64,000 nucleotides of DNA from an uncultured Rickettsiales bacterium (GCA_934747265.1 CAKVGI010000001.1:5499-69498), one strand, 5' to 3'; numbered from the stretch's first letter, positions 3,115 to 59,620 are shown. Notes: generated by a model from the letters alone, not told the origin. Numbers and translations: made by a program.

Positions 3115-3251
3115 AAAATAGATTTTTTTATTTATTTTTTGATTATAAAATTAATTTATGGAAGTATTTTTTTAAAAAATTTTGTGATAAATTGTAATGA
3201 TATATTGAAAAATAATAATTAAATTAAATATAAAAAATTTTAATTTTTTTC

Positions 3252-3280
3252 TTGACTATTAAAATTTTGTGTTTTATAAT
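3252..3280 (+). promoter_or_regulatory. 16S rRNA promoter P1 (TTGACT-N17-TATAAT)
   Basis: Consensus-grade sigma70 hexamers with a 17-nt spacer, about 270 nt upstream of the 16S. Nearly identical to the block upstream of the 23S (49118-49146). Confidence 0.6.
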
Positions 3281-3364
3281 TGATAAGGTGAATTCGGAAA
3301 CTACAAAAAATAATTTGAAAGTCTGGCTTTTTTTAAACAAAATAAAAAAAGTTTAAAAAAAGTG

Positions 3365-3549: not shown

Positions 3550-5073
<1,524 letters not shown>

Positions 5074-5572: not shown

Positions 5573-5935
5573 AGGGCTGAATGTTGTCAAAGTCCAAGCT
5601 TGCTTGAGACTTTGACAACTTATGCCCGCAGTTTGCCGTAGCAAAGCGGAGGAAAACAGGGCTAAATGTTGGGTTTACAACTTATGCCCGCAGTTTGCCG
5701 TAGCAAAGCGGAGGAAAACAGGGCTAGATGTTGGGTTTACAACTTATGCCCGCAGTTTGCCAAAGGAATAACGAACCCTAGATGTCAGACAATGGAATGC
5801 TTGCATTCCAATTGGATGACTTATGGATGAAGTTTGCCAAAGGAACAACAAGCCCTAAATGTCGGAAAATAAAAAGAAGTTTACTTATTTTTATTTGACG
5901 ACTTATGGGTGAAGTTTGCTGAAAGAAACAGCAAA
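5573..5935. repeat. Degenerate tandem array, five units of 62-82 bp, with variable hairpin inserts
   Basis: The CTTATGCCCGCAGTTTGCC unit recurs at 5619, 5681 and 5743 (62-nt period). Diverged units start at 5820 and 5902. Confidence 0.8.
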
Positions 5936-8138: not shown

Positions 8139-8620
8139 GTTTATTTTATTATTTTTTTAGTCCCAGGTGTTATGTTTAGAGACCTAACACCACGAAGTTT
8201 AGAGGTTCAATATCACGAAAACCAAACACCACAAAGATTTAATGCTACAAAGTATTGGGTTCGGAAACCTAACGCCACATCTAAGGAGACGCAATGCAAC
8301 GAGGCTTGAAGGCTTAACATAATAAAGAGACTTAACATTATATAGCCTAAAAATTCAATACCATGAAGTTCAAAAATTTATGCTACAAAATTTAGAGACT
8401 CAATAGTCCGAAGAATATTAATTAACAATCCTACCGCCACAAAATAAAAAAGAAACACTAATCAATGCCAATTTTTAGCATAAATCTCATTTTATGTAAA
8501 ATAATTCTAGAAATATGTTTTGCAATTATCACTATTACAACTAGAATGCAAAACGTAATTTTTAATAGTCAACAAATAATTTAAATTATTTTTATGAAAA
8601 AAATATTCATAAGTTGTGTT
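8139..8620 (-). repeat. Type-2 dispersed element, copy 1 (about 20-bp CCTAACACCAC-type array plus about 210-bp conserved module)
   Basis: Collinear by eye with 12797-13325, in the same orientation. Confidence 0.8.
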
Positions 8621-8749: not shown

Positions 8750-9739
8750 TCAATTTGATGAGTTTTTATTAACTTTATCTTTTGCTAGCGGATGAAGAGA
8801 ATTAACTATATTCTTTAATTTATCGTCAACAATATGTGTATAAATTTGAGTTGTAGAAATATCAGAATGCCCTAAAAGTTCCTGCAATATTCTTAAATCG
8901 GCGCCTCTATTAAGTAAATGTGTAGCAAAGGAATGTCTAATAATGTGTGGAGATATTTTATCAATATCAATACCGCAGTTTATAGCTAATTCTTTTAAGT
9001 TTAATGCAAAAATTTGTCTTGTTGTATGATTATCTTTTGTTTTATATTTAATTTTTGTGTCTTTTTTGATTTTTGAAAAGTTTACAAGAGTTGTCCATAA
9101 CCATTCTGAATGTTTGTTTTGCAATAATCTTTCTCTTAAATTAAGATATTTTATTAATATTTCTTTTGTTTTATTATTAATTGGTACAAGTCTTTCTTTG
9201 CTTCCTTTTCCTTTTATTATTAAATAATCGTCTATTGTATATAAACCATCTTTTCTATATTTTTTTTGGATATCACTAATTTTTAGTTCAACTAATTCAG
9301 AAACTCTCATGCCAGTAGCATATAACAATTCTAACATGCAATAAAATTGAATACCATAATTGCTAGAATCTTCTCTCGCTTTATTTAACAATAGATTAAC
9401 TTCTTCTTCTGATAAAAAAACTGGTAATTTTTCTTGCTTTTTTGGAAGTTCTAACAATTCTGCTGGATTGTTTTCTATAACATTTTCAAGTTGCAAAAAA
9501 ATAAAAAATTGCTTTAAAGATGAAATATTTCTTGATAAAGTAGATACAGATGAGCCTTTATTATATAAAAATTCAATGTATTTTTTTAAATCCATAAATA
9601 CAATTTTGTCTACATTATCCTTTTTTATAAAATTAAAAAAATTATGTAAATCATTTTTATATGACATAGCAGTATTGTTTGAATATCCTTTCTCAACAAT
9701 TAAATTATTTATAAAATTATCAATATTTTTTTTAATCAT
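8750..9739 (-). CDS. Tyrosine site-specific recombinase, XerC/XerD family
   Basis: N-terminal SAM-like domain (LIVEKGYSNNTAMSYKNDL). C-terminal catalytic motifs HIIRHSFATHLL and LLGHSDISTTQIYTH. Confidence 0.8.
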   Translation of the reverse strand: MIKKNIDNFINNLIVEKGYSNNTAMSYKNDLHNFFNFIKKDNVDKIVFMDLKKYIEFLYNKGSSVSTLSRNISSLKQFFIFLQLENVIENNPAELLELPKKQEKLPVFLSEEEVNLLLNKAREDSSNYGIQFYCMLELLYATGMRVSELVELKISDIQKKYRKDGLYTIDDYLIIKGKGSKERLVPINNKTKEILIKYLNLRERLLQNKHSEWLWTTLVNFSKIKKDTKIKYKTKDNHTTRQIFALNLKELAINCGIDIDKISPHIIRHSFATHLLNRGADLRILQELLGHSDISTTQIYTHIVDDKLKNIVNSLHPLAKDKVNKNSSN

Positions 9740-9861
9740 TTTAATATAGAAATTACAAATTATATATTATAATATATAATAAGATAAAATAATTATTGCA
9801 AAATAATTTTTTATTTCTTAAAATATAGTTGTTTAAATTATTTTAACAAAAAGGGTGAAAT

Positions 9862-10899: not shown

Positions 10900-11975
10900 C
10901 CTTGCTCTATTTTGTAAAGGAAACTAATGAAATTATTCTTCCGTTCCTTTTTATAATTGAAAAGCTGACGCAGTTAATGCTCTATAATCTTTGTCTCCTT
11001 TTATAATGGAAAAGTTGATGTGAATATTCTAAATTTATCTCCTTTTCTAAGGATAGAGTTAGTCGTAGAACATTCCACCTTGCCCACATTCATAAGGGTG
11101 GAGCTAACACAGAACCCCCCCTTACCCCCCTTATCAGGTGGGAAAATGAAGGAGCCTTATCAGGGTGGAATTAGTGTATATCCCTCTTATCAGGTGGATG
11201 GATTGAGGGGCAGTCCACATTTGTAAGGTGGAACTGATGTGAAATATTTCCCTTTCTGCCCCCCATTTTGTAAAGGAGGAACTGGCTTAGTCAATACTTC
11301 ATCTCCGCCCCCCTTCGTAAGGGGGGAGTCAGTCATAGACTGACAGGGGGTTGAGAACATTTATTTGTTTTACAAAAAACAAATAAATAATTGAAAATTA
11401 AAAATTGAAAATTGGAAATAAATATAAAGTTAAAGAGCTTGTATTTTAAATTTAAAACTAAAATTAAGAATTATAATAATAATTAAAATTTGGATTAAAG
11501 ATTAAAAAATATAAAGTTAAGAATTTAGAATTAAAAATGTCAAATTAAATATCTCAAATTTAAAATATTAATTAATAATTAAGAATAATGACAATATACT
11601 ATATATCAGACAATAACTATTATATAAAAATATAATTAATTAATAATTTTATAAGAATTATAAAATAATAAAATAATATATTAATATAAAAAACATAGCT
11701 TAAATATAATCAAAGTATTCTAAACCCCCCTTACCCCCCTTATCAGGGGGGAATGAGAGGAACTTATCAGGGGGGTGAGGAGAGACCTTATCAGAGGAAT
11801 GGAATGAAGGGGCCTTATCAGGTGGGTAAGAGAACCTTATCATGGGGATGAGAGGGCCTTATCAGGTGGGATGGGGTATATACTTATCATGGGAGATAGA
11901 GGGTATTCCTTATCAGGGAAAAATAGAAGAGTATATCTTAGCAGTGAGGGGGTGGAGTGTACACTTATCATAGGG
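10900..11975 (+). repeat. Type-1 mosaic intergenic element, copy A (largest copy, nested)
   Basis: Left array of about 45-bp units (TTNTAAGGGGGGAGCTGA-type) at 10900-11349. AT-rich core at 11350-11722. Right array of about 22-bp CCTTATCAGGGG units at 11723-11975. Confidence 0.85.
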
Positions 11976-12796: not shown

Positions 12797-13325
12797 TATT
12801 TTATTACTTTTATTTCTGTTAGTCTTAGGTGTTGGGTTCAGAGGCCCAACATCACACCTAAGGAGACCTAACACCACACCATCAAAGGAGACTCAACACC
12901 ACACCTAAGGAAATCCAACACCAAAAAAGATTCAGAGCCCTAACACAATGAAGCTTAAAGGTCTAACACCACGAAGCTTGAAGGTTTAAAAACACGAATA
13001 TTGAAGGTCTAATACCACAAAATTCAAATACCAAACACAAAACTCACCAATATACAATATTACACATAAGACTATAAATCTTGGAAATAAAATATTGTAA
13101 ATAATATTAATTAACAATCCCATTATCACAAAATAAAAAAGGAACACTTATCAGTACTCCTTTTTTAGCTTAAGTCTCATTTTTTGTATAAAACAACTCT
13201 AGAAATATGTTTTAACAATTACCACTACCGCAACTAGAATATAAAACACAAATTTTTAATAGTCAACAATTAATTTAAATTATTTTTATGTATTTTTATG
13301 AAAAAAATATTTATAGGTTGTGGGT
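12797..13325 (-). repeat. Type-2 dispersed element, copy 2
   Basis: Same architecture and orientation as 8139-8620. The array is at 12820-13050 and the conserved module at 13103-13325. Confidence 0.8.
13238..13266 (-). promoter_or_regulatory. rRNA-P1-like promoter inside type-2 element copy 2 (minus strand TTGACT-N17-TATATT)
   Basis: The minus strand reads TTGACTATTAAAAATTTGTGTTTTATATT. The 16S P1 reads TTGACTATTAAAATTTTGTGTTTTATAAT. Confidence 0.45.
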
Positions 13326-15286: not shown

Positions 15287-17395
15287 ATGTTTAGTATTGT
15301 AAAAAAAGAGATGGAGTGGGGTGGTAAGACTTTAAGTCTTGAAACTGGAAAAATCGGCAGACAAGCTAGTTCTGTTATAGTTAGATATGGTGATACTACT
15401 GTTATGGCTAATGTAACAATAGCCAAAAAAGAAACAACTGGTATTGATTTTGTTCCACTTACAGTAAGTTATATTGAAAAGTTTTATGCAATAGGAAAAA
15501 TACCTGGTGGTTTTGTAAAAAGAGAAACAAAACCATCGGATAATGAAACTTTGATTGCTAGAACAATAGATAGACCAATAAGGCCATTATTTCCATCTAA
15601 TTATAGACATGAAACCGATGTTTTTTGTACTCTTTTAACTTACGATGAACAAACGCCAGCTGATATAGTTGCTTTAATAGCTACATCAGCTGCATTATCT
15701 ATTTCGCCAGCACCTTTTGAAGATGTTGTTGCTGGTGCAAGAGTTTCTTATAAAAATGGTGAATTTATTTTAAATGGTATGCATCCATTGTGCGATGATG
15801 GAAAATTGGATTTAACCGTTGCCGGAACAAAAGATTCTATATTAATGGTTGAGTCAGAAGTAAAAGAATTAACTGAAAATGAAATGCTTGATGCTTTGGA
15901 TTTTGGTCATAAAGAATTAGGCAAAGTTGTAGATTTTATAAAAGATTTTGTTAATGCATGTAAGGTTGAAAAAATTGTACCAACTGCTGTTGATTTCTCA
16001 GAGTTAGAAAGCAATATTAAAGAATTTGCTACAAATGATTTGAGAGAAGCTTACAACATTACAACAAAACGAGAAAGAGTTGCTAAACTTGAAGAAATTC
16101 ATGACGAAATTAATGAAAAGTTTGTTGGTGAAAGCGACGATGAAATTTTAATAAATAAAGTTAGTGAAATAACACAAGATATAGAGAAAACCATAGTTAG
16201 AACTATGATTTTAAAAGAAGGACGAAGAATTGATGGTAGAAAAATTGATCAAGTTAGACCAATTACACCAGAAGTTGATGTTCTCCCAATAGTTCATGGT
16301 TCTGCCTTATTTACAAGAGGTGAGACACAAGCTTTGGTTATTACAACTTTGGGTTCCGAACATGATGAACAAATAGTTGACAATGTATCAGAATCTATTG
16401 ATTCTCAAAACTTTATATTGCATTATAATTTTCCACCTTATGCTGTTGGTGAAACTGGCTTTTTAAAGGCACCAGGTAGAAGAGAAATAGGTCATGGTAA
16501 ATTGGCTTGGAAAGCAATACATAATATAGTAAAACTTGATGAAAATTTCCCTTATACAATAAGAGTTGTATCAGAAATTACAGAATCAAATGGTTCATCG
16601 TCAATGGCAACTGTGTGTGGTACATCTATGTCATTAATGTCAGCTGGTGTTCCTATGAAAGCTCCTGTTTCTGGTATTGCAATGGGCTTGATAAAAGAAG
16701 GTGATGATTTTGTGGTTTTAACAGATATTATGGGAGATGAAGATCACCTTGGAGATATGGATTTTAAAGTAGCTGGAACAGAGAATGGAATTACTGCTTT
16801 ACAAATGGATATTAAATGCAAAGGCATAACAAAAGAAATTATGTCAAAAGCTTTAAGCCAAGCAAAAGAAGGTAGACATTTTATATTAACAAGAATGTCA
16901 GAAGCTATTAGTGAATCAAGAGCAGAAGTTTCAAAAACAGCGCCAAGAGCTTTGACTTTTAAAATAAAACCAAACAAGATCAAGGATGTTATTGGAAGTA
17001 AAGGAAAAGTTATAAAAGATATAATTGATAAAACTGGAACAACAATTGATATAGATGATGATGGTACAGTTGTAATTATGTCAAATAACCAAGAATCAAG
17101 TCAAAAAGCTAAAAAAATGATTGAAGAAATAGCTTGCGATTTGGAGATTGGAAAAATTTATGAAGGAAAGGTTTTAAAGATTTTAGATTCCGGTGCTTTC
17201 ATTGACTTGCCTGGTAAAACTGATGGCTTTGTACATATTAGTCAATTAGCTAATTACAGAGTTGAATTTGTTGATGATATATTAAATGAAGGAGATATTG
17301 TAAAGGTTAAATTGATTGGTTTTGATAGAAACAACAAGCCAAAATTAAGTTATAAGGCAGTTGATCAGAAAACTGGTGAGGATTTAGAAAAATAA
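15287..17395 (+). CDS. pnp: Polyribonucleotide nucleotidyltransferase (PNPase)
   Basis: Two RNase PH domains plus KH and S1 domains. Canonical rpsO-pnp order. ATG at 15287 is preceded by AAGGA. Confidence 0.97.
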   Translation: MFSIVKKEMEWGGKTLSLETGKIGRQASSVIVRYGDTTVMANVTIAKKETTGIDFVPLTVSYIEKFYAIGKIPGGFVKRETKPSDNETLIARTIDRPIRPLFPSNYRHETDVFCTLLTYDEQTPADIVALIATSAALSISPAPFEDVVAGARVSYKNGEFILNGMHPLCDDGKLDLTVAGTKDSILMVESEVKELTENEMLDALDFGHKELGKVVDFIKDFVNACKVEKIVPTAVDFSELESNIKEFATNDLREAYNITTKRERVAKLEEIHDEINEKFVGESDDEILINKVSEITQDIEKTIVRTMILKEGRRIDGRKIDQVRPITPEVDVLPIVHGSALFTRGETQALVITTLGSEHDEQIVDNVSESIDSQNFILHYNFPPYAVGETGFLKAPGRREIGHGKLAWKAIHNIVKLDENFPYTIRVVSEITESNGSSSMATVCGTSMSLMSAGVPMKAPVSGIAMGLIKEGDDFVVLTDIMGDEDHLGDMDFKVAGTENGITALQMDIKCKGITKEIMSKALSQAKEGRHFILTRMSEAISESRAEVSKTAPRALTFKIKPNKIKDVIGSKGKVIKDIIDKTGTTIDIDDDGTVVIMSNNQESSQKAKKMIEEIACDLEIGKIYEGKVLKILDSGAFIDLPGKTDGFVHISQLANYRVEFVDDILNEGDIVKVKLIGFDRNNKPKLSYKAVDQKTGEDLEK

Positions 17396-17419: not shown

Positions 17420-17770
17420 ATGGTTGAAGAAACAAAAAAAGATTTTAGACCAAGAAGAAGATTTAAAATCAGTAAAGGCGAATTTAATCCAAATATAGAG
17501 ATCGGAAAGATTTACGAGGGAAAAGTTGTAAAGATTTTACCATCTGGTGCTTTTGTAGAATTTCCAGAAAGTCCAAAGAGAGATGGCTTTGTACATATTA
17601 GTCAATTAGCTAATTACAGAGTTGATAAAGTTGAAGATATTTTAAAACAAGATGGAGTATATAAATTTAAGTTAATTGGATTTGATTATAGCAGAAAACC
17701 AAAGTTAAGCTACAAAGCAGTAAATCAAGAAACTGGTGAAGATGTAGAAAATAAAGAAGAAAATAAATAA
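17420..17770 (+). CDS. Stand-alone S1 RNA-binding domain protein, a paralogue of the PNPase C-terminus
   Basis: [21 protein letters not shown]....[17 protein letters not shown] aligns with the PNPase S1 domain. Nucleotides 17582-17625 are identical to 17222-17265. Confidence 0.8.
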
Positions 17771-20967: not shown

Positions 20968-21500
20968 CACCCCCCCTTTTTTTTGTAACGTAAGAGATGA
21001 TGTATTCAATACCTTCTTTTTACTCTCCCACCTTATCTACATTCATAGGGGTGGAGCTGACACAGAAACACCCCTTGCCCCCCTTATCAGGGGGGGATGA
21101 GCGGTAGCCCCCTTTGTAGGAGGGTTAGTCTCAGAACACCTTCCCTCCGCCCCCCTTTGTAAGGGGGGAGCTGATGTAGTCAGCAGGGGGGTTGATAGCT
21201 ATTTATTTGTTTTATTATAAAAAAAATAAATAATTAAAAATTGAAAATTAAAATAAAATATAAAGTCGAGGATTTGAATTTAAGATTTAAAATTAAGAAT
21301 TAAGAATTAAGAATAATACTATATATTAAACAGTAATTATTATTATATAAAGTATATAATTAATAATTTTATAAGAATTATAAAATAATAAAATAATATA
21401 TTAATATAAAAAACAAAGTATAAAACAATTAAAGTATTTTAACCCCCCTTACCCAACTTATCAGGGGGAGATTGAGGTAGTACCTCTTATTATGGAATAG
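20968..21500 (+). repeat. Type-1 mosaic intergenic element, copy B
   Basis: Left array 20968-21197, core 21198-21440, short right array 21441-21500. Confidence 0.85.
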
Positions 21501-36339: not shown

Positions 36340-37040
36340 CTCCTTTCACCACCACCGCTAAGTATATTATCTATCCTCCCATGATAAGAGGTATTCTATT
36401 ACCCATAATAAAGTCTCCTCATTCTCCATGATAAGACCCCTTCATTCCCTCCCTGCTAAGATATACTCTTCTATTTTTCCCTGATAAGGGGCACCTATCC
36501 AATTCCCCCCTGATAAGGGGGGTAAGGGGGGTTTAAAATACTTTGATTATATTAAGTTTTGTTTTATATTATTTTATAATTCTTAATTCTTAATTCTTAA
36601 TTTTAAATCCTCGACTTTAATTTTATTTTCAATTTTTAATTTTCAATTATCCATTTGTTTTATAATAAAACAAAATAAATGCTATCAACCACCCCCCTGT
36701 CAGTCTATGACTGACTCCCAACTTACTAAGGGGGACAGGAAGAGGATGTTTTCTCTTACAAGGGGGGCGAGGATTGGATATATTGACTGCGACTGACTCC
36801 CCCCTTACGAAGGATGGCTACTACTCATTCCCCCCTGATAAGGGGGGCAAGGGGGGTTTTGTGTCAGCTCCCCCCTTACAAAGGATGGCAAGGATAGGAT
36901 ATATTGACTGCGACCGACTCCATCCTTATAAAGGGAGGCGGAGGAGAGAGGTATTGACTACGTTGGATTTCCCATTACAAATGTGGGCGAGGAGGAAAGT
37001 ATTTTACAACAGCCTTCTTACAAAAGGTGATAAAATATTT
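36340..37040 (-). repeat. Type-1 mosaic intergenic element, copy C (inverted, core internally deleted)
   Basis: Reverse complement of the family. CCCCCCTGATAAGGGGGGTAAGGGGGGTTT at 36506-36535. The core is only about 150 bp. Confidence 0.85.
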
Positions 37041-42672: not shown

Positions 42673-42859
42673 CTAACTTACCACCTTTAAACTTTTTATT
42701 AATAACCATTTTCTAAGAATAAATAATATAATTTTTAAGTCAAGAAATAAAAAATATTTTACAGGATATTATTAATCTATAATTTATTAAACAGTAAATA
42801 TAAGTCATATTTTAATTTATATCTATACTTTTATTATATCTTTTTATCTTTTCATTAAA

Positions 42860-43340
42860 CTTCACCTACCGTTAGAAAATACCAATTTTTGCTCCACTGC
42901 TAATGATAGGTATCTTTTACCCTCTATTAAGAGAAACTTTTTAATCCCTTAATAAGAACATACATTCTTACCTGTTAAGGGGATACTCCTCAATACCCCT
43001 GCCAAGAAGGTACTCATCTAATATCCCCTGTTAAAAGTAGTAAAAGTGGGGGGCGAATATTTGATTATATTAGATTACAATTATTTATATAAATAATATT
43101 TTTAATGTGTAATATATTTATTATTCTTAATTCTAAATCCAAACCCTGCAAATTTATATTTTATTTTCAATTTTTAATTATTTATTTTATTATAAATTAA
43201 ATAAATGCTATCAATCATCACTGCTGACTACGTTAGCTCCACCATATAAAAGGGACAAAGAAGTCAACGTATCAAATAAATAGATTAATATATACGTCAA
43301 CTCCTACCATATAAGAGGGACAAAGAAGGAGATGCTAACT
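42860..43340 (-). repeat. Type-1 mosaic intergenic element, copy D (inverted, heavily decayed)
   Basis: Recognisable core (AAATAAATGCTATCAATCATCACTGCTGACTACGTTAGC; TTCAATTTTTAATTA) with AT-eroded arms. Confidence 0.65.
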
Positions 43341-45914: not shown

Positions 45915-46575
45915 GTCCCTTTAATTCCTTTTATCATTTTTGCGGAGTTAGTTGCGAAATACCTCTTCTCCGCCTTCTCATTGTAAAGTAATAAGCTAGC
46001 GTATGAATACTTTCCCTTTCGTTATCCTCTGTGAGAAAAAGCTGATGTAGAACGCTCCCCTTGCTACCTTCGTAAGGAAGGGAGTTGACACTAAAACCCC
46101 CCTTACCCCCCTTATCAGGGGGGAATGAGTAGTAGCTATCCTTTGTAAGGGGGGAGCTGACGTAGTCAGCAGGGGGGTGATAGTATTTATTTTGTTTTAT
46201 TATAAAATAAAACAAAATAAATAATTGAAAATTGAAAATAAATATAAAGTTGAAGAGCTTAAATTCAAGATTTAAAATTAAGAATTAAGAATTAAGAATT
46301 AAGAATAATACTATATATTAAACAGTAATTATTATTATATAAAGTATATAATTAATAATTTTATAAGAATTATAAAATAATATATTAACATAAAAAAAGA
46401 ATTTAAATATAATTAAAGTATTTAAACCCCCCTTACCCCCCTTATCAGGGGGGAATTGAATAGGTGCCCCTTATCAGGGGAGAATAGAGATTATTATTCT
46501 TACATGATGGAATGAAATAAAGTAGCAGGAGGCAGAGAGAGGCATCTTAATACAGTAGTAGGAATATAACTTAAC
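45915..46575 (+). repeat. Type-1 mosaic intergenic element, copy E (best preserved)
   Basis: Left array 45915-46182, core 46183-46423, right array 46424-46575. A 33-nt perfect direct repeat is at 46094-46126 and 46424-46456. Confidence 0.88.
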
Positions 46576-46813
46576 GGAAAAATAAAGTTTATTGAAGGAA
46601 AAATAAAAGTATAGATATAGGTTAAGATGTAATTTACATTTATTATTTAATAAACCATATTATAGAATATGAAAAAAGCAGAAAATGTAAAGAAAGAGAA
46701 AATTGTAAATGGAGATAAATTAATTATTATTAATACTATTTATTTTATAAAAATTCTTGTTTTTTAAAGATTAATTGGTTAATATTCTTTTGAGTTAATA
46801 TAATTATATTTGT

Positions 46814-48901: not shown

Positions 48902-49117
48902 TATATTATGTATTATAATTGATTAATAACTTATTAAATACACTTTTAATATTTGATTATGATAAATAATTATTATATAATATATTATTTTTTTGAGGGT
49001 ATAATAAATTATTTAATATAAAATATTTTTATTTTTTTTAAAAAAAATTTTAGAAAAGTTGAATAACATATTGAGAAATAAGCGATTAATAATATATAAA
49101 ATTTTTTAATTTTTTTC

Positions 49118-49146
49118 TTGACTATTAAGATTTTGTATTTTATAAT
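49118..49146 (+). promoter_or_regulatory. 23S-5S promoter P1 (TTGACT-N17-TATAAT)
   Basis: Near-identical to the 16S P1 block, including the upstream AATTTTTTTC and the downstream GGTGAnATTCGGAAA leader. Confidence 0.6.
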
Positions 49147-49209
49147 GGATTAGGTGAGATTCGGAAAACTCCAAAAAATAAAAAAAGTTAAAAATAAGAA
49201 AAATATTTC

Positions 49210-49410: not shown

Positions 49411-52158
<2,748 letters not shown>

Positions 52159-52265
52159 GGATAATGTATATAAAGTAAAACTATATATAGTATTAAATCT
52201 ATATTTTACGGGTATAAATTGTACTAATATTAATGAGCATTTAAAGACTTTACCGTCCTTAAATA

Positions 52266-52380
52266 GCTTGGTAATCATAATGATGTGGAACCACTCGATA
52301 CATTCCGAACTCGCCAGTGAAACGCAAATCATGCCGATTGTACTATGGCTCTGTCATGGGAGATTAGGTTATTGCCAAGC
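52266..52380 (+). rRNA. rrf: 5S ribosomal RNA
   Basis: Helix I GCTTGGTAAT / ATTGCCAAGC. Conserved CCGAACTC, GTGAAAC and GGGAGA. Confidence 0.9.
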
Positions 52381-52803: not shown

Positions 52804-54486
52804 TAGATGATATAGATTGGAAAAATTTAACTCCATCTAAAATAAAAAATAATGAAGGAATAAAAAAGAAAATAATAGAACAAATACAAAATGAGGATAA
52901 ACATTTTGAGTTAAATAGCAATAATTTACTTTTAATTAAAGACTACTTGAATAAAATTGAGTTAAATAAACAATTAGAATTAAAAGAAGAGATTACAGAA
53001 GATGAGCTTAAAAAAACTTTGAATGGTCTAAATGAAAGATTACATAAAATAAAAACTTTAAAAGATACGGATAGAAGCTTATTTTTTAGTGCTATAATGA
53101 TAGCAATAAGAGAAAAACTTCTGATTTATGAGGTTGAAAAGCAAATATCTATTTATGAAGATAAAATTGCTGATTTGTCAAAAGAAAATAAAAAAGTAAA
53201 AAGTATAGAATATAATAAAGAAGCAATATATAAAATATTTCAAATTCAATTATTGATATAGTTGATAATTTGATAAAAAGTAAAATAAATACTGAATCAA
53301 AACAAAAATGGAGGGATCAATTTATATTTATTAGAAATTTAAATATTGATTTGTATGAGTATAGAGATATTATATATTTGATAAGTGAAAAAAAATATAT
53401 AAAACATTTAAAGTAGGGCAAAAACAAGATATATTAGGTAAGGCTTACAAGATATTTTTGTCAAGAGCTGGTAAGGTTGATAATAAAAATATTATTTTGA
53501 CGCCAGATCATATAAAACATCTTATGGTTGAATTAGCGGATTTAAACGTTGATGATGTTGTGTTAGATACTTGTATGGGAACTGGTGGCTTTTTGATGGA
53601 GGCCATGGAAAAAATGGAATCCCTTGATGGTATCAATGAAGCCAAAAAAGAAATTATACATAATCAGCAATTAATAGGAAGTGAGATTGATACAAAATTA
53701 TTTGTGTTGGCTTGTAGTAATATGTTTTTACATGGAGATGGTAGAAGTCAATTGTATGATAAGGATACTCTAAATGACGATGCAACTTTTAAAAATGGTG
53801 ATGGGTTCTTTAATTACATAAAATCCCTAAATCCAACAAAATGTATAATAAATCCACCATATGAGGGTAAAAATTGTTTTGATTTTACAAGTCAGGCGTT
53901 GGACTTTTTGGATATCGGCGGAAAATTAATTGTAATCATTAAAGAAAATACATTTCAAAAACCAAATAAAGATATAGAAAAATTGTTAAAAAATAATACT
54001 CTTGATTTTTATATAAAGATGCCTGCAAATTTATTCAGTGAACAAAATAGATCTGTTTCAACGGCAATTTTTGGTTGGACAAAAGGCATTCCACATAATC
54101 ATAATAAATATGTTAAATTTTATAATTTAAGTGATGATGGTTTTGAAAATATACCGCATAATGGTAGAATAGATACAAAAAATATTTGGAAAGATAAGGA
54201 AAAAGAAATTATAGAATATATTTTATATGATAAGGATATAAATGAGAAAAATGTTGCATATAAAGAAAAAATTTTTAATAATGACAATTTATTGCCAATA
54301 TATCATCATTTTATAGAAGATTTAGAACCAGTTTATATGAAAGATTTTGAAGACACAATTTTTGATTATTTTATATATGAGCAAGACCTTGCGGGGGGGG
54401 GGCAGCTTAATAAACTCATTAAAGAGATTGATAATAGAAATATCAAAAGATTTATAATTAAGGAGATGAAAAATGGAAAGAATTAA
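52767..54486 (+). pseudogene. Type I-like N6-adenine DNA methyltransferase (HsdM-like) split over three reading frames
   Basis: The catalytic part has DILGKAYKIFL, motif I DTCMGTGGFL and motif IV NPPY. Coding continuity runs frame 0 (to 53261), then frame 2 (53234-53416), then frame 1 (open from 53389). Confidence 0.7.
54393..54402 (+). repeat. Poly-G tract (G10) inside the 3' end of the methylase ORF
   Basis: Counted directly: GCGGGGGGGGGGCAG. Confidence 0.95.
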
Positions 54487-55027
54487 ATTAATTATAAATA
54501 AAATTAAGAATGACACAAAAACCGAATTACCAAAAGATGTTGAATGGAAAGAATTTTGTCTTAATGAGATTTTTTATATATATGGTAGTAAGACAACTAC
54601 AAAACAGAAGTTAGAAGAAATTGGAAGTGGCGATTATCCATATATAACCACACAAGCAACAAATAATGGATGTTTTGGTTGTTATAATTTTTGGACTGAA
54701 GACGGTAATTGTTTAACCATAGATAGTGCTGTTCTTGGTAGCTGTTTTTATCAAGAAAAAAATTTTACAGCTAGTGATCATGTGGAAATTTTGAGACCAA
54801 AATACAAAAATTTTAATAAAAATATTGGTCTTTTTATAAAAACTATAATTTCAAAAACTACAAAGAATATATATAATTATACAAATAAATTCAATCAAAC
54901 TAAAATTAAAAATACAAAAATTTTTCTTCCATCAAAAAACAATGAGCCAGATTGGGAATATATGGATAAATTTATTGAAAATGTACAAAAGGCGATGAAT
55001 CTTGATTTTTCTACACACACACCATAA
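54473..55027 (+). CDS. Type I restriction-modification specificity subunit, first target-recognition half
   Basis: TRD-like body ending in the conserved IFLPSKNNEPDWEYMDKFIENV. Overlaps the M stop by 14 nt. Confidence 0.68.
   Translation: MERIKLIINKIKNDTKTELPKDVEWKEFCLNEIFYIYGSKTTTKQKLEEIGSGDYPYITTQATNNGCFGCYNFWTEDGNCLTIDSAVLGSCFYQEKNFTASDHVEILRPKYKNFNKNIGLFIKTIISKTTKNIYNYTNKFNQTKIKNTKIFLPSKNNEPDWEYMDKFIENVQKAMNLDFSTHTP
55013..55022 (+). repeat. (AC)5 dinucleotide repeat at the junction of the two S halves
   Basis: ACACACACAC lies immediately before the TAA at 55025-55027. Confidence 0.95.
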
Positions 55028-55545
55028 GAACACTTATAAACAAAATTAGGAATAACATAAAAACTGAATTACCAAAATGTACTGAATGGCAGGAATTTAA
55101 AATTAGTTTCTTATTTAATGTAAAATCTACAAAAACAAGAGAATTAAATAAATATTGTGATGGTAATGTGCCATTTGTTTCTGGGACGTCTATAAATAAT
55201 GGTGTTGAAAGATTTGTAAAGTCAGATGAAATTTTAGAGAATGGTAATTGTATTACTGTTTCAAGTTTAAATTGCTCGGCTTTTTATCAAGATAAAGATT
55301 TTATAGGAAGGGGTCATGGTGTTGTTCAGAGATTATATAATAAACATCTAAATAAAAATAATGCTCTTTTTGTTTGTACTGTAATTAAAAAACTTGGAAA
55401 AAAATATAATTATAACAATCAATGTTTTATGAACACATTAAAGAATGAAAGCATATATCTTCCATCAAAAAACAATGAGCCAGATTGGGAATACATGAAT
55501 AAATTTATTGATGAAATAAAAAATAATTTAAGGATTATTATTTAA
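55027..55545 (+). CDS. Type I specificity subunit, second target-recognition half (no own start codon for its conserved N-terminal segment)
   Basis: Frame 1 is open from 55027. RTLINKIRNNIKTELPKCTEWQEF mirrors the start of the first half (LIINKIKNDTKTELPKDVEWKEF). It ends IYLPSKNNEPDWEYMNKFIDEI. The first possible start is GTG at 55168. Confidence 0.65.
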   Translation, partial: RTLINKIRNNIKTELPKCTEWQEFKISFLFNVKSTKTRELNKYCDGNVPFVSGTSINNGVERFVKSDEILENGNCITVSSLNCSAFYQDKDFIGRGHGVVQRLYNKHLNKNNALFVCTVIKKLGKKYNYNNQCFMNTLKNESIYLPSKNNEPDWEYMNKFIDEIKNNLRIII

Positions 55546-59079: not shown

Positions 59080-59620
59080 TGCTTTAAAGCTGACGTGAAG
59101 TACCTCCTACTTATTGCCACCACTTCATAAGTGGGTTGATGGCATTTATTTGTTTTATTATAAAACAAATGAATAATTGAAAATTGAAAATAAAATATAA
59201 AGTCGGATATTTGAATTTAAGATTTAAAATTAAGAATTAAGAATTAAGAATAATACTATATATTAAACAGTAATTATTATTATATAAAGTATATAATTAA
59301 TAATTTTATAAGAATTATAAAATAATACATTAATATAAAAAACAAAGCTTAAATATAATCAAAGTATTTTAAACCCCCCTTGCCCCCCTTATCAGGGGGG
59401 AATGGAGAGTATCCTTATCGTGGGGAGGAGACCTTATCATTGGAGGATAAGGAACTTATCAGGGGGAGAGTATTCTTGTTATGTGAGATAGAGGAGTATC
59501 TCTTAACAAAGGGGATAGATAGAATATCCTTTTACTAGGGGAATAAAAGGGTATCCACTTAGCGGGAGGATAGGAAGTAGTACCTTCCTAGCAGAGGGGA
59601 CGAAAGAGAACTTAGCATAA
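59080..59620 (+). repeat. Type-1 mosaic intergenic element, copy F (left array almost absent)
   Basis: Core 59141-59372. Right array of about 10 decaying CCTTATCAGGGG units at 59373-59620. Confidence 0.85.

Follow-up and report, generated by a model that had tools for sequence, protein, structure and literature searches.

The stretch of DNA analyzed here, 64,000 nucleotides from an uncultured Rickettsiales bacterium (GCA_934747265.1 CAKVGI010000001.1:5499-69498; hereafter the window), has a base composition of about 26% GC and carries a split rRNA operon, the 16S gene (3550-5072) being located apart from the 23S-5S genes (49411-52380). The nearest named relatives of its TrxB protein are labelled "Rickettsiales bacterium" or "Alphaproteobacteria bacterium" and come from metagenome-assembled genomes, and strains about 99% identical to the window are present in several gut-type metagenome assemblies. 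The window itself matches a portion of the ENA scaffold ERZ28614312:scaffold_614 at 100% identity. Our subject is a set of six composite repeat clusters, copies A to F (Table 1), in each of which two kinds of array of short GC-rich units flank an AT-rich core. The clusters were noticed in an earlier reading of the DNA alone (the sequence-only reading), which described them as six copies of one intergenic element of 0.5-1.1 kb. They total 3993 bases, or 6.2% of the window, have a GC content of 29-40%, and range from 481 to 1076 bases in length, a spread that is due to internal insertions and deletions. The flanking genes include an inositol-monophosphatase-family (suhB-like) gene, a TolC-like gene, and the genes for LptF, TrxB, and S16; the open reading frames (ORFs) that overlap the clusters are all spurious, and the 5 kb examined on the scaffold outside the window are free of copies.

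The clusters are real and occur far beyond chance, and the observation made in the sequence-only reading, including the positions and strands of all six copies, their intergenic location, and their share of roughly 6% of the window, is confirmed. A repeat search of the window connected all six copies, on the strands assigned to them. The 30-base opener (AAACCCCCCTTRCCCCCCTTATCAGGGGGGAAT) was found eight times with two or fewer mismatches (none expected from shuffles), a 75-base core block was found three times without a mismatch (in copies B, E, and F; shuffles give essentially none), and the palindrome AGCTGAYGTAGTCAGC was found three times (0.01 expected from shuffles). Runs of five or more C or G residues, which had been singled out as conspicuous in so AT-rich a genome, are indeed nearly restricted to the clusters, the exceptions being rRNA and tRNA genes, a single G10 tract, and a small number of scattered runs of five. 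Independent assemblies contain these elements between the same flanking sequences, and the clusters are therefore not assembly artefacts. A conserved ORF in the left arrays was considered and rejected, in keeping with the earlier statement that none is conserved across the element: the 93-amino-acid ORFs of copies C and E are alike only over a stretch of 23 residues, which is repeat-encoded.

Both types of unit follow a single plan, as read on the bottom strand: a C-run/G-run hairpin, a linker of one to three bases, and a G-rich tract. On that strand the opener reads CCCCCC-TGATAA-GGGGGG-TAA-GGGGGG-TTT. It stands at the start of the right array, as had been reported, but a second copy, not mentioned there, lies within the left arrays of copies A, B, C, and E. 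The hairpins have stems of 5-6 bp and loops of 6-7 bases, and dozens of units are present in the 64 kb, all of them intergenic. In the left units, which are about 48 bases long, double changes preserve the pairing of some stems, as where CCAC/GTGG or CCTTC/GAAGG stands for CCCC/GGGG. The stems are flanked by TTA or TTG on the 5' side and by AAT or AG on the 3' side; GTAG is found only in the second palindrome, 8-10 bases away from the hairpin, and neither a GTAG nor a CGTC tag directly abuts a stem in the window units. The right units (19-30 bases) retain the sequence C-TTATCA-KGGG and have lost the hairpin, the 5' arm being down to one or two C residues. They are organized in arrays of 2-10 units at a spacing of 19-30 bases, with a conserved AUCAGGGG, GGA-rich spacers, and purine-rich linkers of 8-15 bases. 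Within any copy, the loops (TTATCA or TTTGTAA) all lie on the same strand. The arrays are thus direct, and inverted (head-to-head or tail-to-tail) dimers of the repetitive extragenic palindromic (REP) type are absent from them.

The segment of copy E that comprises the internal opener, one left unit, the palindrome, and the closing G-run (46090-46185) has folding z-scores of -4.7 and -4.6 on the two strands, and the equivalent domain of copy B, an opener with a left unit, has a z-score of -3.6 relative to shuffles. The right arrays, meanwhile, fold no better than shuffled sequence (z = -0.9 and -1.0), which argues against a structured RNA there, one of the roles that had been suggested. As for the core, its reported near-identity among copies applies to B, E, and F only. 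Just its two ends are common to all six copies; the core block of copy A (157 bases) is 66% identical and is accompanied by an insertion of about 110 bases, and the cores of copies C and D lack the 75-base block. A TATAAT box is kept in five of the six copies, and purines make up 59-63% of the top strand over the core and right array.

The arrays fade outward into the surrounding DNA. Among right units, the match to the consensus declines with distance from the core (Spearman -0.50, p = 0.002); the corresponding coefficient for left units is -0.27 (p = 0.17), and the GC content of the arrays drops outward to 0.26-0.4. We found neither terminal inverted repeats spanning an element nor target-site duplications; the ends of the copies are progressively decayed units. 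The right arrays of copies A and C have in common a 50-base sub-block that is 92% identical (11908-11957 in A, the distal units in C).

Table 1. Modules and sequence features of the six repeat clusters, in window coordinates
Feature	Position	Strand	Description
Copy A left array	10900-11352	+	degenerate units of about 45-50 bases, each with a C-run/G-run hairpin and a GTAG-containing palindrome
Copy A internal opener	11113-11142	+	inside left array; followed by three right-type units
Copy A AT-rich core	11353-11721	+	11% GC; longest core, with extra insertion of about 110 bases
Copy A opener and right array	11722-11975	+	ten purine-rich units, 22-28 bases apart
Copy B left array	20968-21192	+	internal opener 21066-21095; leading C-run C7/C8/C9 among strains
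Copy B AT-rich core	21193-21436	+	exact 75-base block at 21315-21389
Copy B right end	21437-21500	+	degenerate opener, then short right array of two units
Copy C left array	36702-37040	-	about seven units; internal opener 36830-36859
Copy C core	36535-36701	-	short; without 75-base block
Copy C opener and right array	36340-36534	-	opener 36505-36534
Copy D left array	43216-43340	-	decayed; two units
Copy D core	43057-43215	-	short, diverged
Copy D right end	42860-43056	-	decayed opener, then right array
Copy E left array	45915-46177	+	internal opener
Copy E AT-rich core	46178-46423	+	(TAAGAAT)n microsatellite; 75-base block 46307-46381
Copy E AT palindrome	46184-46223		perfect, 18-base; in core
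Copy E sigma-70-like site	46385-46413		TTAACA-17-TATAAT; best match; points into opener
Copy E opener and right array	46424-46575	+	opener 46424-46453; two units, seven in another strain
Copy F left array	59080-59139	+	one left unit; synteny with strain L092 ends at 59085
Copy F AT-rich core	59140-59370	+	75-base block 59252-59326
Copy F promoter-like site	59330-59359		TTAATA-18-TATAAT; in core
Copy F opener and right array	59371-59620	+	opener 59371-59400; about ten units

Just beyond the right arrays of copies E and D lies an inverted repeat of 65 bases (46595-46659 and 42778-42842, 78% complementary), which is located between the array and trxB in the case of E and between the array and rpsU in the case of D. 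The shared sequence therefore slightly exceeds the element ends given in Table 1.

Comparison with nearly identical strains revealed that a cluster is not one indivisible element and that its modules occur separately. At site B, strains L104 and L108 have kept the whole left array, which is followed by unrelated DNA and a P-type ATPase gene; the core, the right array, and the suhB-like gene are missing. At site F, synteny with L092 breaks exactly at the boundary of the element (59085). L092 carries a reversed, core-less array between a DUF2155 gene and a HAD gene and abutting the latter, which in the window has a plain gap of 80 bases upstream. The HAD gene has its own TTGACA promoter whether or not a cluster lies upstream. 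At site E, strain L083 has other neighbors upstream of trxB and no copy E, and the promoter-proximal 90 or so bases of trxB are identical in this element-free strain. Unit number varies as well: seven units (six TTATCA motifs and a truncated opener) are present upstream of trxB in L084 as compared with two in the window, a comparison of strains that are about 99% identical, and the homopolymeric C-run at site B is C7, C8, or C9 depending on the strain. The synteny breaks fall at module junctions. Finally, an unknown insertion with 24-base inverted-repeat ends (TGATTGTGAATTTTAACTTGAAGT) interrupts the loop of the CCCCCC-TTATCA-GGGGGG hairpin of the opener in two different copies from two strains or samples (L107 1594-1642 and L085 1-24); the window does not contain it. 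The loops of REP sequences are targets of the insertion sequence IS1397, and the insertion seen here likewise lies in a hairpin loop.

The opener is not confined to this bacterium. In a scan of one genome per species, its 21-base core was present, among the matches listed, at no fewer than 81 loci (at least 81, where we estimate that well under one would be expected by chance) in Poribacteria, Entotheonella, Binatia, Nitrospirales, Deltaproteobacteria, Gammaproteobacteria, Cyanobacteria, bacteria of the candidate phyla radiation, and others. The foreign loci have the same flanks, which lengthen the match to about 33 bases, and eight copies in the window match the U1 motif, AACCCCCCTTRCCCCCCTTATCAGGGGGG(A/T)A, with zero to two mismatches in 30 bases. 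At 29-30 of these loci (of at least 81), a DUF559 gene (PF04480, E = 7e-33) follows at a constant distance: exactly 7 bases separate the end of the motif, in reverse complement, from the first conserved residues of the protein (I/L-P-Y-N); about 50 of the loci are without DUF559 and represent orphan motifs. The foreign layout consists of a sister hairpin (AACCCCCTAAATCCCCCTTATCAGGGGGACTTT), the motif, the gene, and the sister hairpin again, and tandem arrays of CCCTTATCAGGGG units are found in foreign genomes too.

A second survey started from the gene. It covered 80 DUF559 loci from Joint Genome Institute (JGI) metagenomes (L110-L189), 40-73% identical to the query, and defined a flanking hairpin as a C-rich stem of 5-8 bp, a loop of 3-9 bases, a G-rich arm, a linker of 2-6 bases, and a second G-run. 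A perfect C-rich hairpin with a G-run was present on the gene strand within 100 bases upstream at 29 of 68 loci, as compared with 10 for the other strand and 5 for a control region. The 100 bases upstream of DUF559 genes had a mean folding z-score of -1.28 versus -0.52 for intragenic controls (p = 0.001). The stems vary with gene lineage (CCCCTC/GAGGGG, CCCCCCT/AGGGGGG, CCCTCCCC/GGGGAGGG, and others). Among the 54 loci with both flanks, 30 had hairpins on both sides, and in 24 of these 30 the stems were the same and the loops were reverse-complementary; thus, the gene lies between inverted copies. Read as its reverse complement, CCCCCCT-GATA-AGGGGGG-TAA-GGGGGG-TTT, the opener has the same architecture as 32 gene-upstream examples, and relative to L110 its hairpin and second G-run are identical, the linker alone being different (TAA here, CAA in L110). 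Sequence comparison thus shows that the window opener is identical to the cross-phylum motif and that this motif is linked to DUF559 genes in other phyla.

Two further identities were considered in this connection. CCCCUGAUAAGGG resembles the anticodon arm of Escherichia coli tRNA-Ile(GAU), and we rejected mimicry of that arm because the DUF559 hairpins elsewhere have unrelated loops (TTGA, TTGG, and TATGNAATA in other lineages). The AT-rich core was also rejected as a decayed DUF559 pseudogene, the best E-value in an hmmsearch of six-frame translations with filters off being 0.36. The number of copies is high in several of the genomes with DUF559, where some copies are apparently frameshifted (Entotheonella OX639990) and others form tandem repeats of gene plus motif (Poribacteria L012).

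The window's relatives present a different picture. None of the window's units was found in five loci of 11-21 kb from relatives in which TrxB is about 70-73% identical and the GC content is 23-25%. In one relative (L095, TrxB 73% identical), the gap upstream of trxB contains a different GC-rich palindromic repeat, CGTCATTGCGAG...GCAATCCA, and is filled (9150-9800) by a CGTC-type REP cluster (GATTGCCACG-hairpin-CTCGCAATGAC and CGTCATTGCGAGCGAAGCGAAGCAATCCA). In its sequence, this repeat fits the CGTC-tagged REP superfamily, which is known mainly from Alphaproteobacteria and includes the Rickettsia palindromic elements RPE-4 and RPE-6 and the dRS3 repeat of Neisseria (PMC3733652). The L095 cluster and copy E lie in the same genomic niche, which is therefore occupied by different repeat families. 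These comparisons suggest that the clusters of the window are lineage-specific.

Database searches did not assign the clusters to a described family, in agreement with the sequence-only reading, which had recognized none. The Rfam search that it had proposed gave no hit for any copy at the gathering score, and none when the limit was relaxed to E of 5-10; the strongest match below threshold was Phe_leader, with 30 bits against a cut-off of 55 bits, and the cross-phylum motif likewise has no Rfam family. The motif had no match in viral contigs, phages, or plasmids, and a phage or plasmid origin was rejected on that ground. A scan of JGI metagenomes for core and opener together gave no match either. 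We also rejected an integron attC site, whose R' and R'' boxes were, by eye, neither complementary nor in agreement with the consensus, and a CRISPR array, as the units are degenerate and lie only 19-30 bases apart in total, with purine-rich linkers of 8-15 bases. The cross-phylum unit of DUF559 gene and hairpin appears, from a limited search of the literature, to be undescribed.

In general character, the clusters resemble the REP sequences and bacterial interspersed mosaic elements (BIMEs) of enterobacteria and pseudomonads, which are short GC-rich palindromes of high copy number that are exclusively intergenic, vary among strains, and are often reiterated in tandem with bits of flanking DNA; the BIME/REP analogy drawn in the sequence-only reading was in the right neighborhood. 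The window hairpins answer to the basic description of a REP (a palindrome of 20-40 bases, high in copy number and extragenic), the superfamilies of which, GTAG- and CGTC-tagged, are common to several phyla (PMC3733652, Di Nocera et al. 2013). They differ from REPs in that the stems are homopolymeric C and G runs without an abutting GTAG or CGTC tag, in that the units are direct rather than arranged as head-to-head dimers and have an AT-rich core of 160-370 bases amid them, and in that no REP-associated tyrosine transposase (RAYT) is encoded in the window and strain loci examined.

Neisserial intergenic mosaic elements (NIMEs), in which RS units are separated by dRS3 repeats that are CGTC-1 REPs, are comparable as large intergenic mosaics of a short palindromic repeat interleaved with other repeat families (PMC3733652). 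However, the sequences are unrelated, dRS3 is of the CGTC type, and neither an AT-rich core nor a gradient of unit decay is a feature of NIMEs. NIMEs are hotspots of recombination and insertion. The pneumococcal BOX elements, which consist of boxA, a variable number of boxB units, and boxC, are also modular intergenic repeats with variable tandem units of about 45 bases, strong predicted structure, and no transposase of their own, but a BOX element has defined end modules and behaves as a unit, whereas the ends of the window clusters are undefined and their modules separate. RAYT/REP (REPIN) systems offer a parallel to the foreign loci, at which hairpins bracket a nuclease gene in inverted orientation, the hairpin type tracks the gene lineage, and many orphans are dispersed over the same genomes; the gene, however, is for a DUF559/Vsr-like PD-(D/E)XK endonuclease and not for a Y1 (IS200/IS605-type) transposase, and its action on the hairpins is putative. 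Like the Rickettsia palindromic elements (RPEs), finally, the clusters are palindromic repeats that have proliferated in Rickettsiales, and RPE-4 and RPE-6 are CGTC REPs, the type seen in L095. By description, though, RPEs are single units of 100-150 bases that often lie in frame within genes, whereas the window arrays are intergenic and without a CGTC tag.

We favor the view, with a probability of roughly 0.6, that the clusters are lineage-specific REP/BIME/NIME-like mosaics of orphan copies of the DUF559-associated hairpin repeat, shaped by slippage and recombination. The hairpin unit would have reached this lineage by horizontal transfer, as we infer from the lack of the unit in relatives with TrxB about 70-73% identical. 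Replication slippage or unequal recombination would then have amplified the units into tandem arrays of two diverged types, left and right, and the AT-rich core and adjoining units would have been kept alike among loci by copying or gene conversion as the outer units decayed towards the AT-rich background. The dispersed arrays would now serve as substrates for homologous recombination and as targets for insertion, leading to the rearrangements seen among strains, and any effects on neighboring genes, such as promoter activity or protection of RNA 3' ends, would be a by-product. The hairpins may have been mobilized in trans by a hairpin-specific enzyme, and the step from a motif linked to DUF559 to mobilization by the DUF559 enzyme itself is one that we infer.

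Several points weigh against this view. No DUF559 gene was detected by tblastn, and no RAYT or other transposase was found, in the window or in 28 loci from its own strains and relatives. None of the foreign loci (at least 81) contains an equivalent of the left units, the GTAG-containing palindrome, or the AT-rich core, and the connection with the cross-phylum family is thus limited to part of the cluster. The window hairpins are all direct, whereas REPs and the repeats that flank DUF559 genes are typically inverted pairs. The conserved core ends, the AT palindrome, and the TATAAT box kept in five of six copies could reflect selection rather than recent copying. Every difference seen among the strains is either a rearrangement or a gain or loss of units. 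The sequence-only reading had called for a search for empty sites; site E of L083 is without the element but has other neighbors, and no clean pair of empty and filled sites was recovered among the strains. Last, the literature search behind the apparent novelty of the DUF559 link, which addressed the motif and DUF559 together with repeats and found nothing relevant, was a limited one.

A more ambitious and tentative version of this view is that the opener hairpin belongs to an undescribed, domain-wide, REP-like superfamily, the masters of which would be DUF559 genes bracketed by inverted hairpins and which would have crossed into this AT-rich gut bacterium and expanded there into mosaic clusters. 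The superfamily would operate either as a partnership of the RAYT/REP kind or through a homing endonuclease that inserts copies of itself into hairpin doublets; we put the chance of this proposal at about one in three.

The sequence-only reading had raised the possibility of a promoter cassette, and a portable promoter and 5' leader remains an explanation that we regard as unlikely. It would place a promoter in the core, have the transcript open with the opener hairpin and a purine-rich leader, and thereby drive or stabilize expression of the downstream gene. The best sigma-70-like sites of copies E and F do occupy the right edge of the core, with 10-20 bases between them and the opener, the TATAAT box is retained in five of six copies, the purine bias of core and right array is that of sense strands, and four right arrays face gene starts. 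TATAAT is common at 26% GC, however, and its retention follows from the copies being repeats. The arrangement of four right arrays of six facing a gene start, which had been pointed out, is correct as to the flanking genes but is uninformative: of the 12 sides of the six copies, 7 are directed at the start of a co-oriented gene, about as many as chance would give, and copy A faces none. Moreover, strains in which the element is missing or different still have the genes' own promoters at trxB and the HAD gene, and unit number is freely variable among strains. These three features, the independent promoters, the near-chance orientation, and the free variation in unit number, argue against any required function of the clusters.

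Less probable still is that each cluster is a single composite, non-autonomous transposon, similar to a miniature inverted-repeat transposable element (MITE), with all modules moving together. In its favor, the order of the modules is identical in the six copies, the cores of B, E, and F are nearly identical, and A and C have the right-array sub-block in common. The idea of one element of 0.5-1.1 kb nevertheless did not survive comparison with near-identical strains, in which left arrays alone and a core-less cluster exist, nor does it sit well with ends that are decayed units bare of terminal inverted repeats and target-site duplications, or with the wide range of lengths produced by internal indels.

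We give little credence to the idea that the clusters are genes for non-coding RNAs, such as a protein-sponge RNA that would present CAGGGG/GGA motifs much as CsrB does for CsrA. The reiterated right units with their conserved AUCAGGGG and GGA-rich spacers, and the promoter-like site upstream, are what such a gene would have; yet there was no Rfam match even at E up to 10, the right arrays fold like shuffles, no intrinsic terminator was predicted in the copies checked, units decay outward and vary in number among strains, and six loci in 64 kb are too many for a regulator. The least probable explanation is that arrays of CTTATCAGGGG are binding sites beside an AT-rich unwinding region (an iteron-type origin, a centromere-like site, or a landing pad for a nucleoid protein). 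In its favor, the direct repeats are about two helical turns apart (22-28 bases), the right units conserve sequence and not pairing, and they adjoin AT-rich DNA that contains a palindrome and a 7-base microsatellite. Against it, the window shows no enrichment of DnaA boxes (20 versus 24.6 expected), six sites in 64 kb with degenerate units of variable number are unlike an origin or centromere, and no candidate binding protein is encoded nearby.

The window contains other repeats. A G10 homopolymer (54393-54402) lies near the 3' end of a type I restriction-modification methylase gene (53458-54486), downstream of which are two short HsdS-like ORFs with a common 83-base repeat (54908-54990 and 55441-55523); together they look like a phase-variable or shufflable restriction system. 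Just 3' of the 16S gene (5612-5870) is a tandem repeat with a period of 62 bases, made up of 2.4 copies (98% identity) and further, decayed ones. Another family of intergenic repeats, at 8176-8618 and 12841-13322, consists of arrays of a 22-23-base unit (TTAGAGACCTAACACCACGAAG) followed by about 250 bases in common (73-98% identity); one copy neighbors a XerC/D-like recombinase gene (8750-9739), and the other is downstream of rpsP. The 16S and 23S genes are each preceded by a copy of a 125-base stretch (3167-3291 and 49033-49157, 80% identity), presumably a duplicated promoter or leader of the split rRNA operon. Finally, a 70-base stretch at 89% identity (17222-17291 and 17582-17651) is common to the S1 domain with which the PNPase gene ends and to an adjacent ORF of 118 amino acids with an S1 domain.

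For this organism, the clusters mark assembly breaks and differences in gene order among strains and are the main visible source of structural variation in the genome. Beyond it, the same non-coding sequence of 33 bases is present in a gut-associated alphaproteobacterium of 26% GC, in sponge symbionts, in groundwater bacteria of the candidate phyla radiation, and in cyanobacteria, and its fixed link in the last three groups, at 7 bases, to a DUF559 gene points to a horizontally spreading unit of gene plus hairpin. The CGTC REP superfamily has been reported to be without a dedicated transposase (PMC3733652). If the opener hairpin does belong to a domain-wide superfamily with DUF559 genes as its masters, then DUF559, a very common domain, would gain a function, and a large class of orphan palindromic repeats would gain a candidate mobilizing enzyme.

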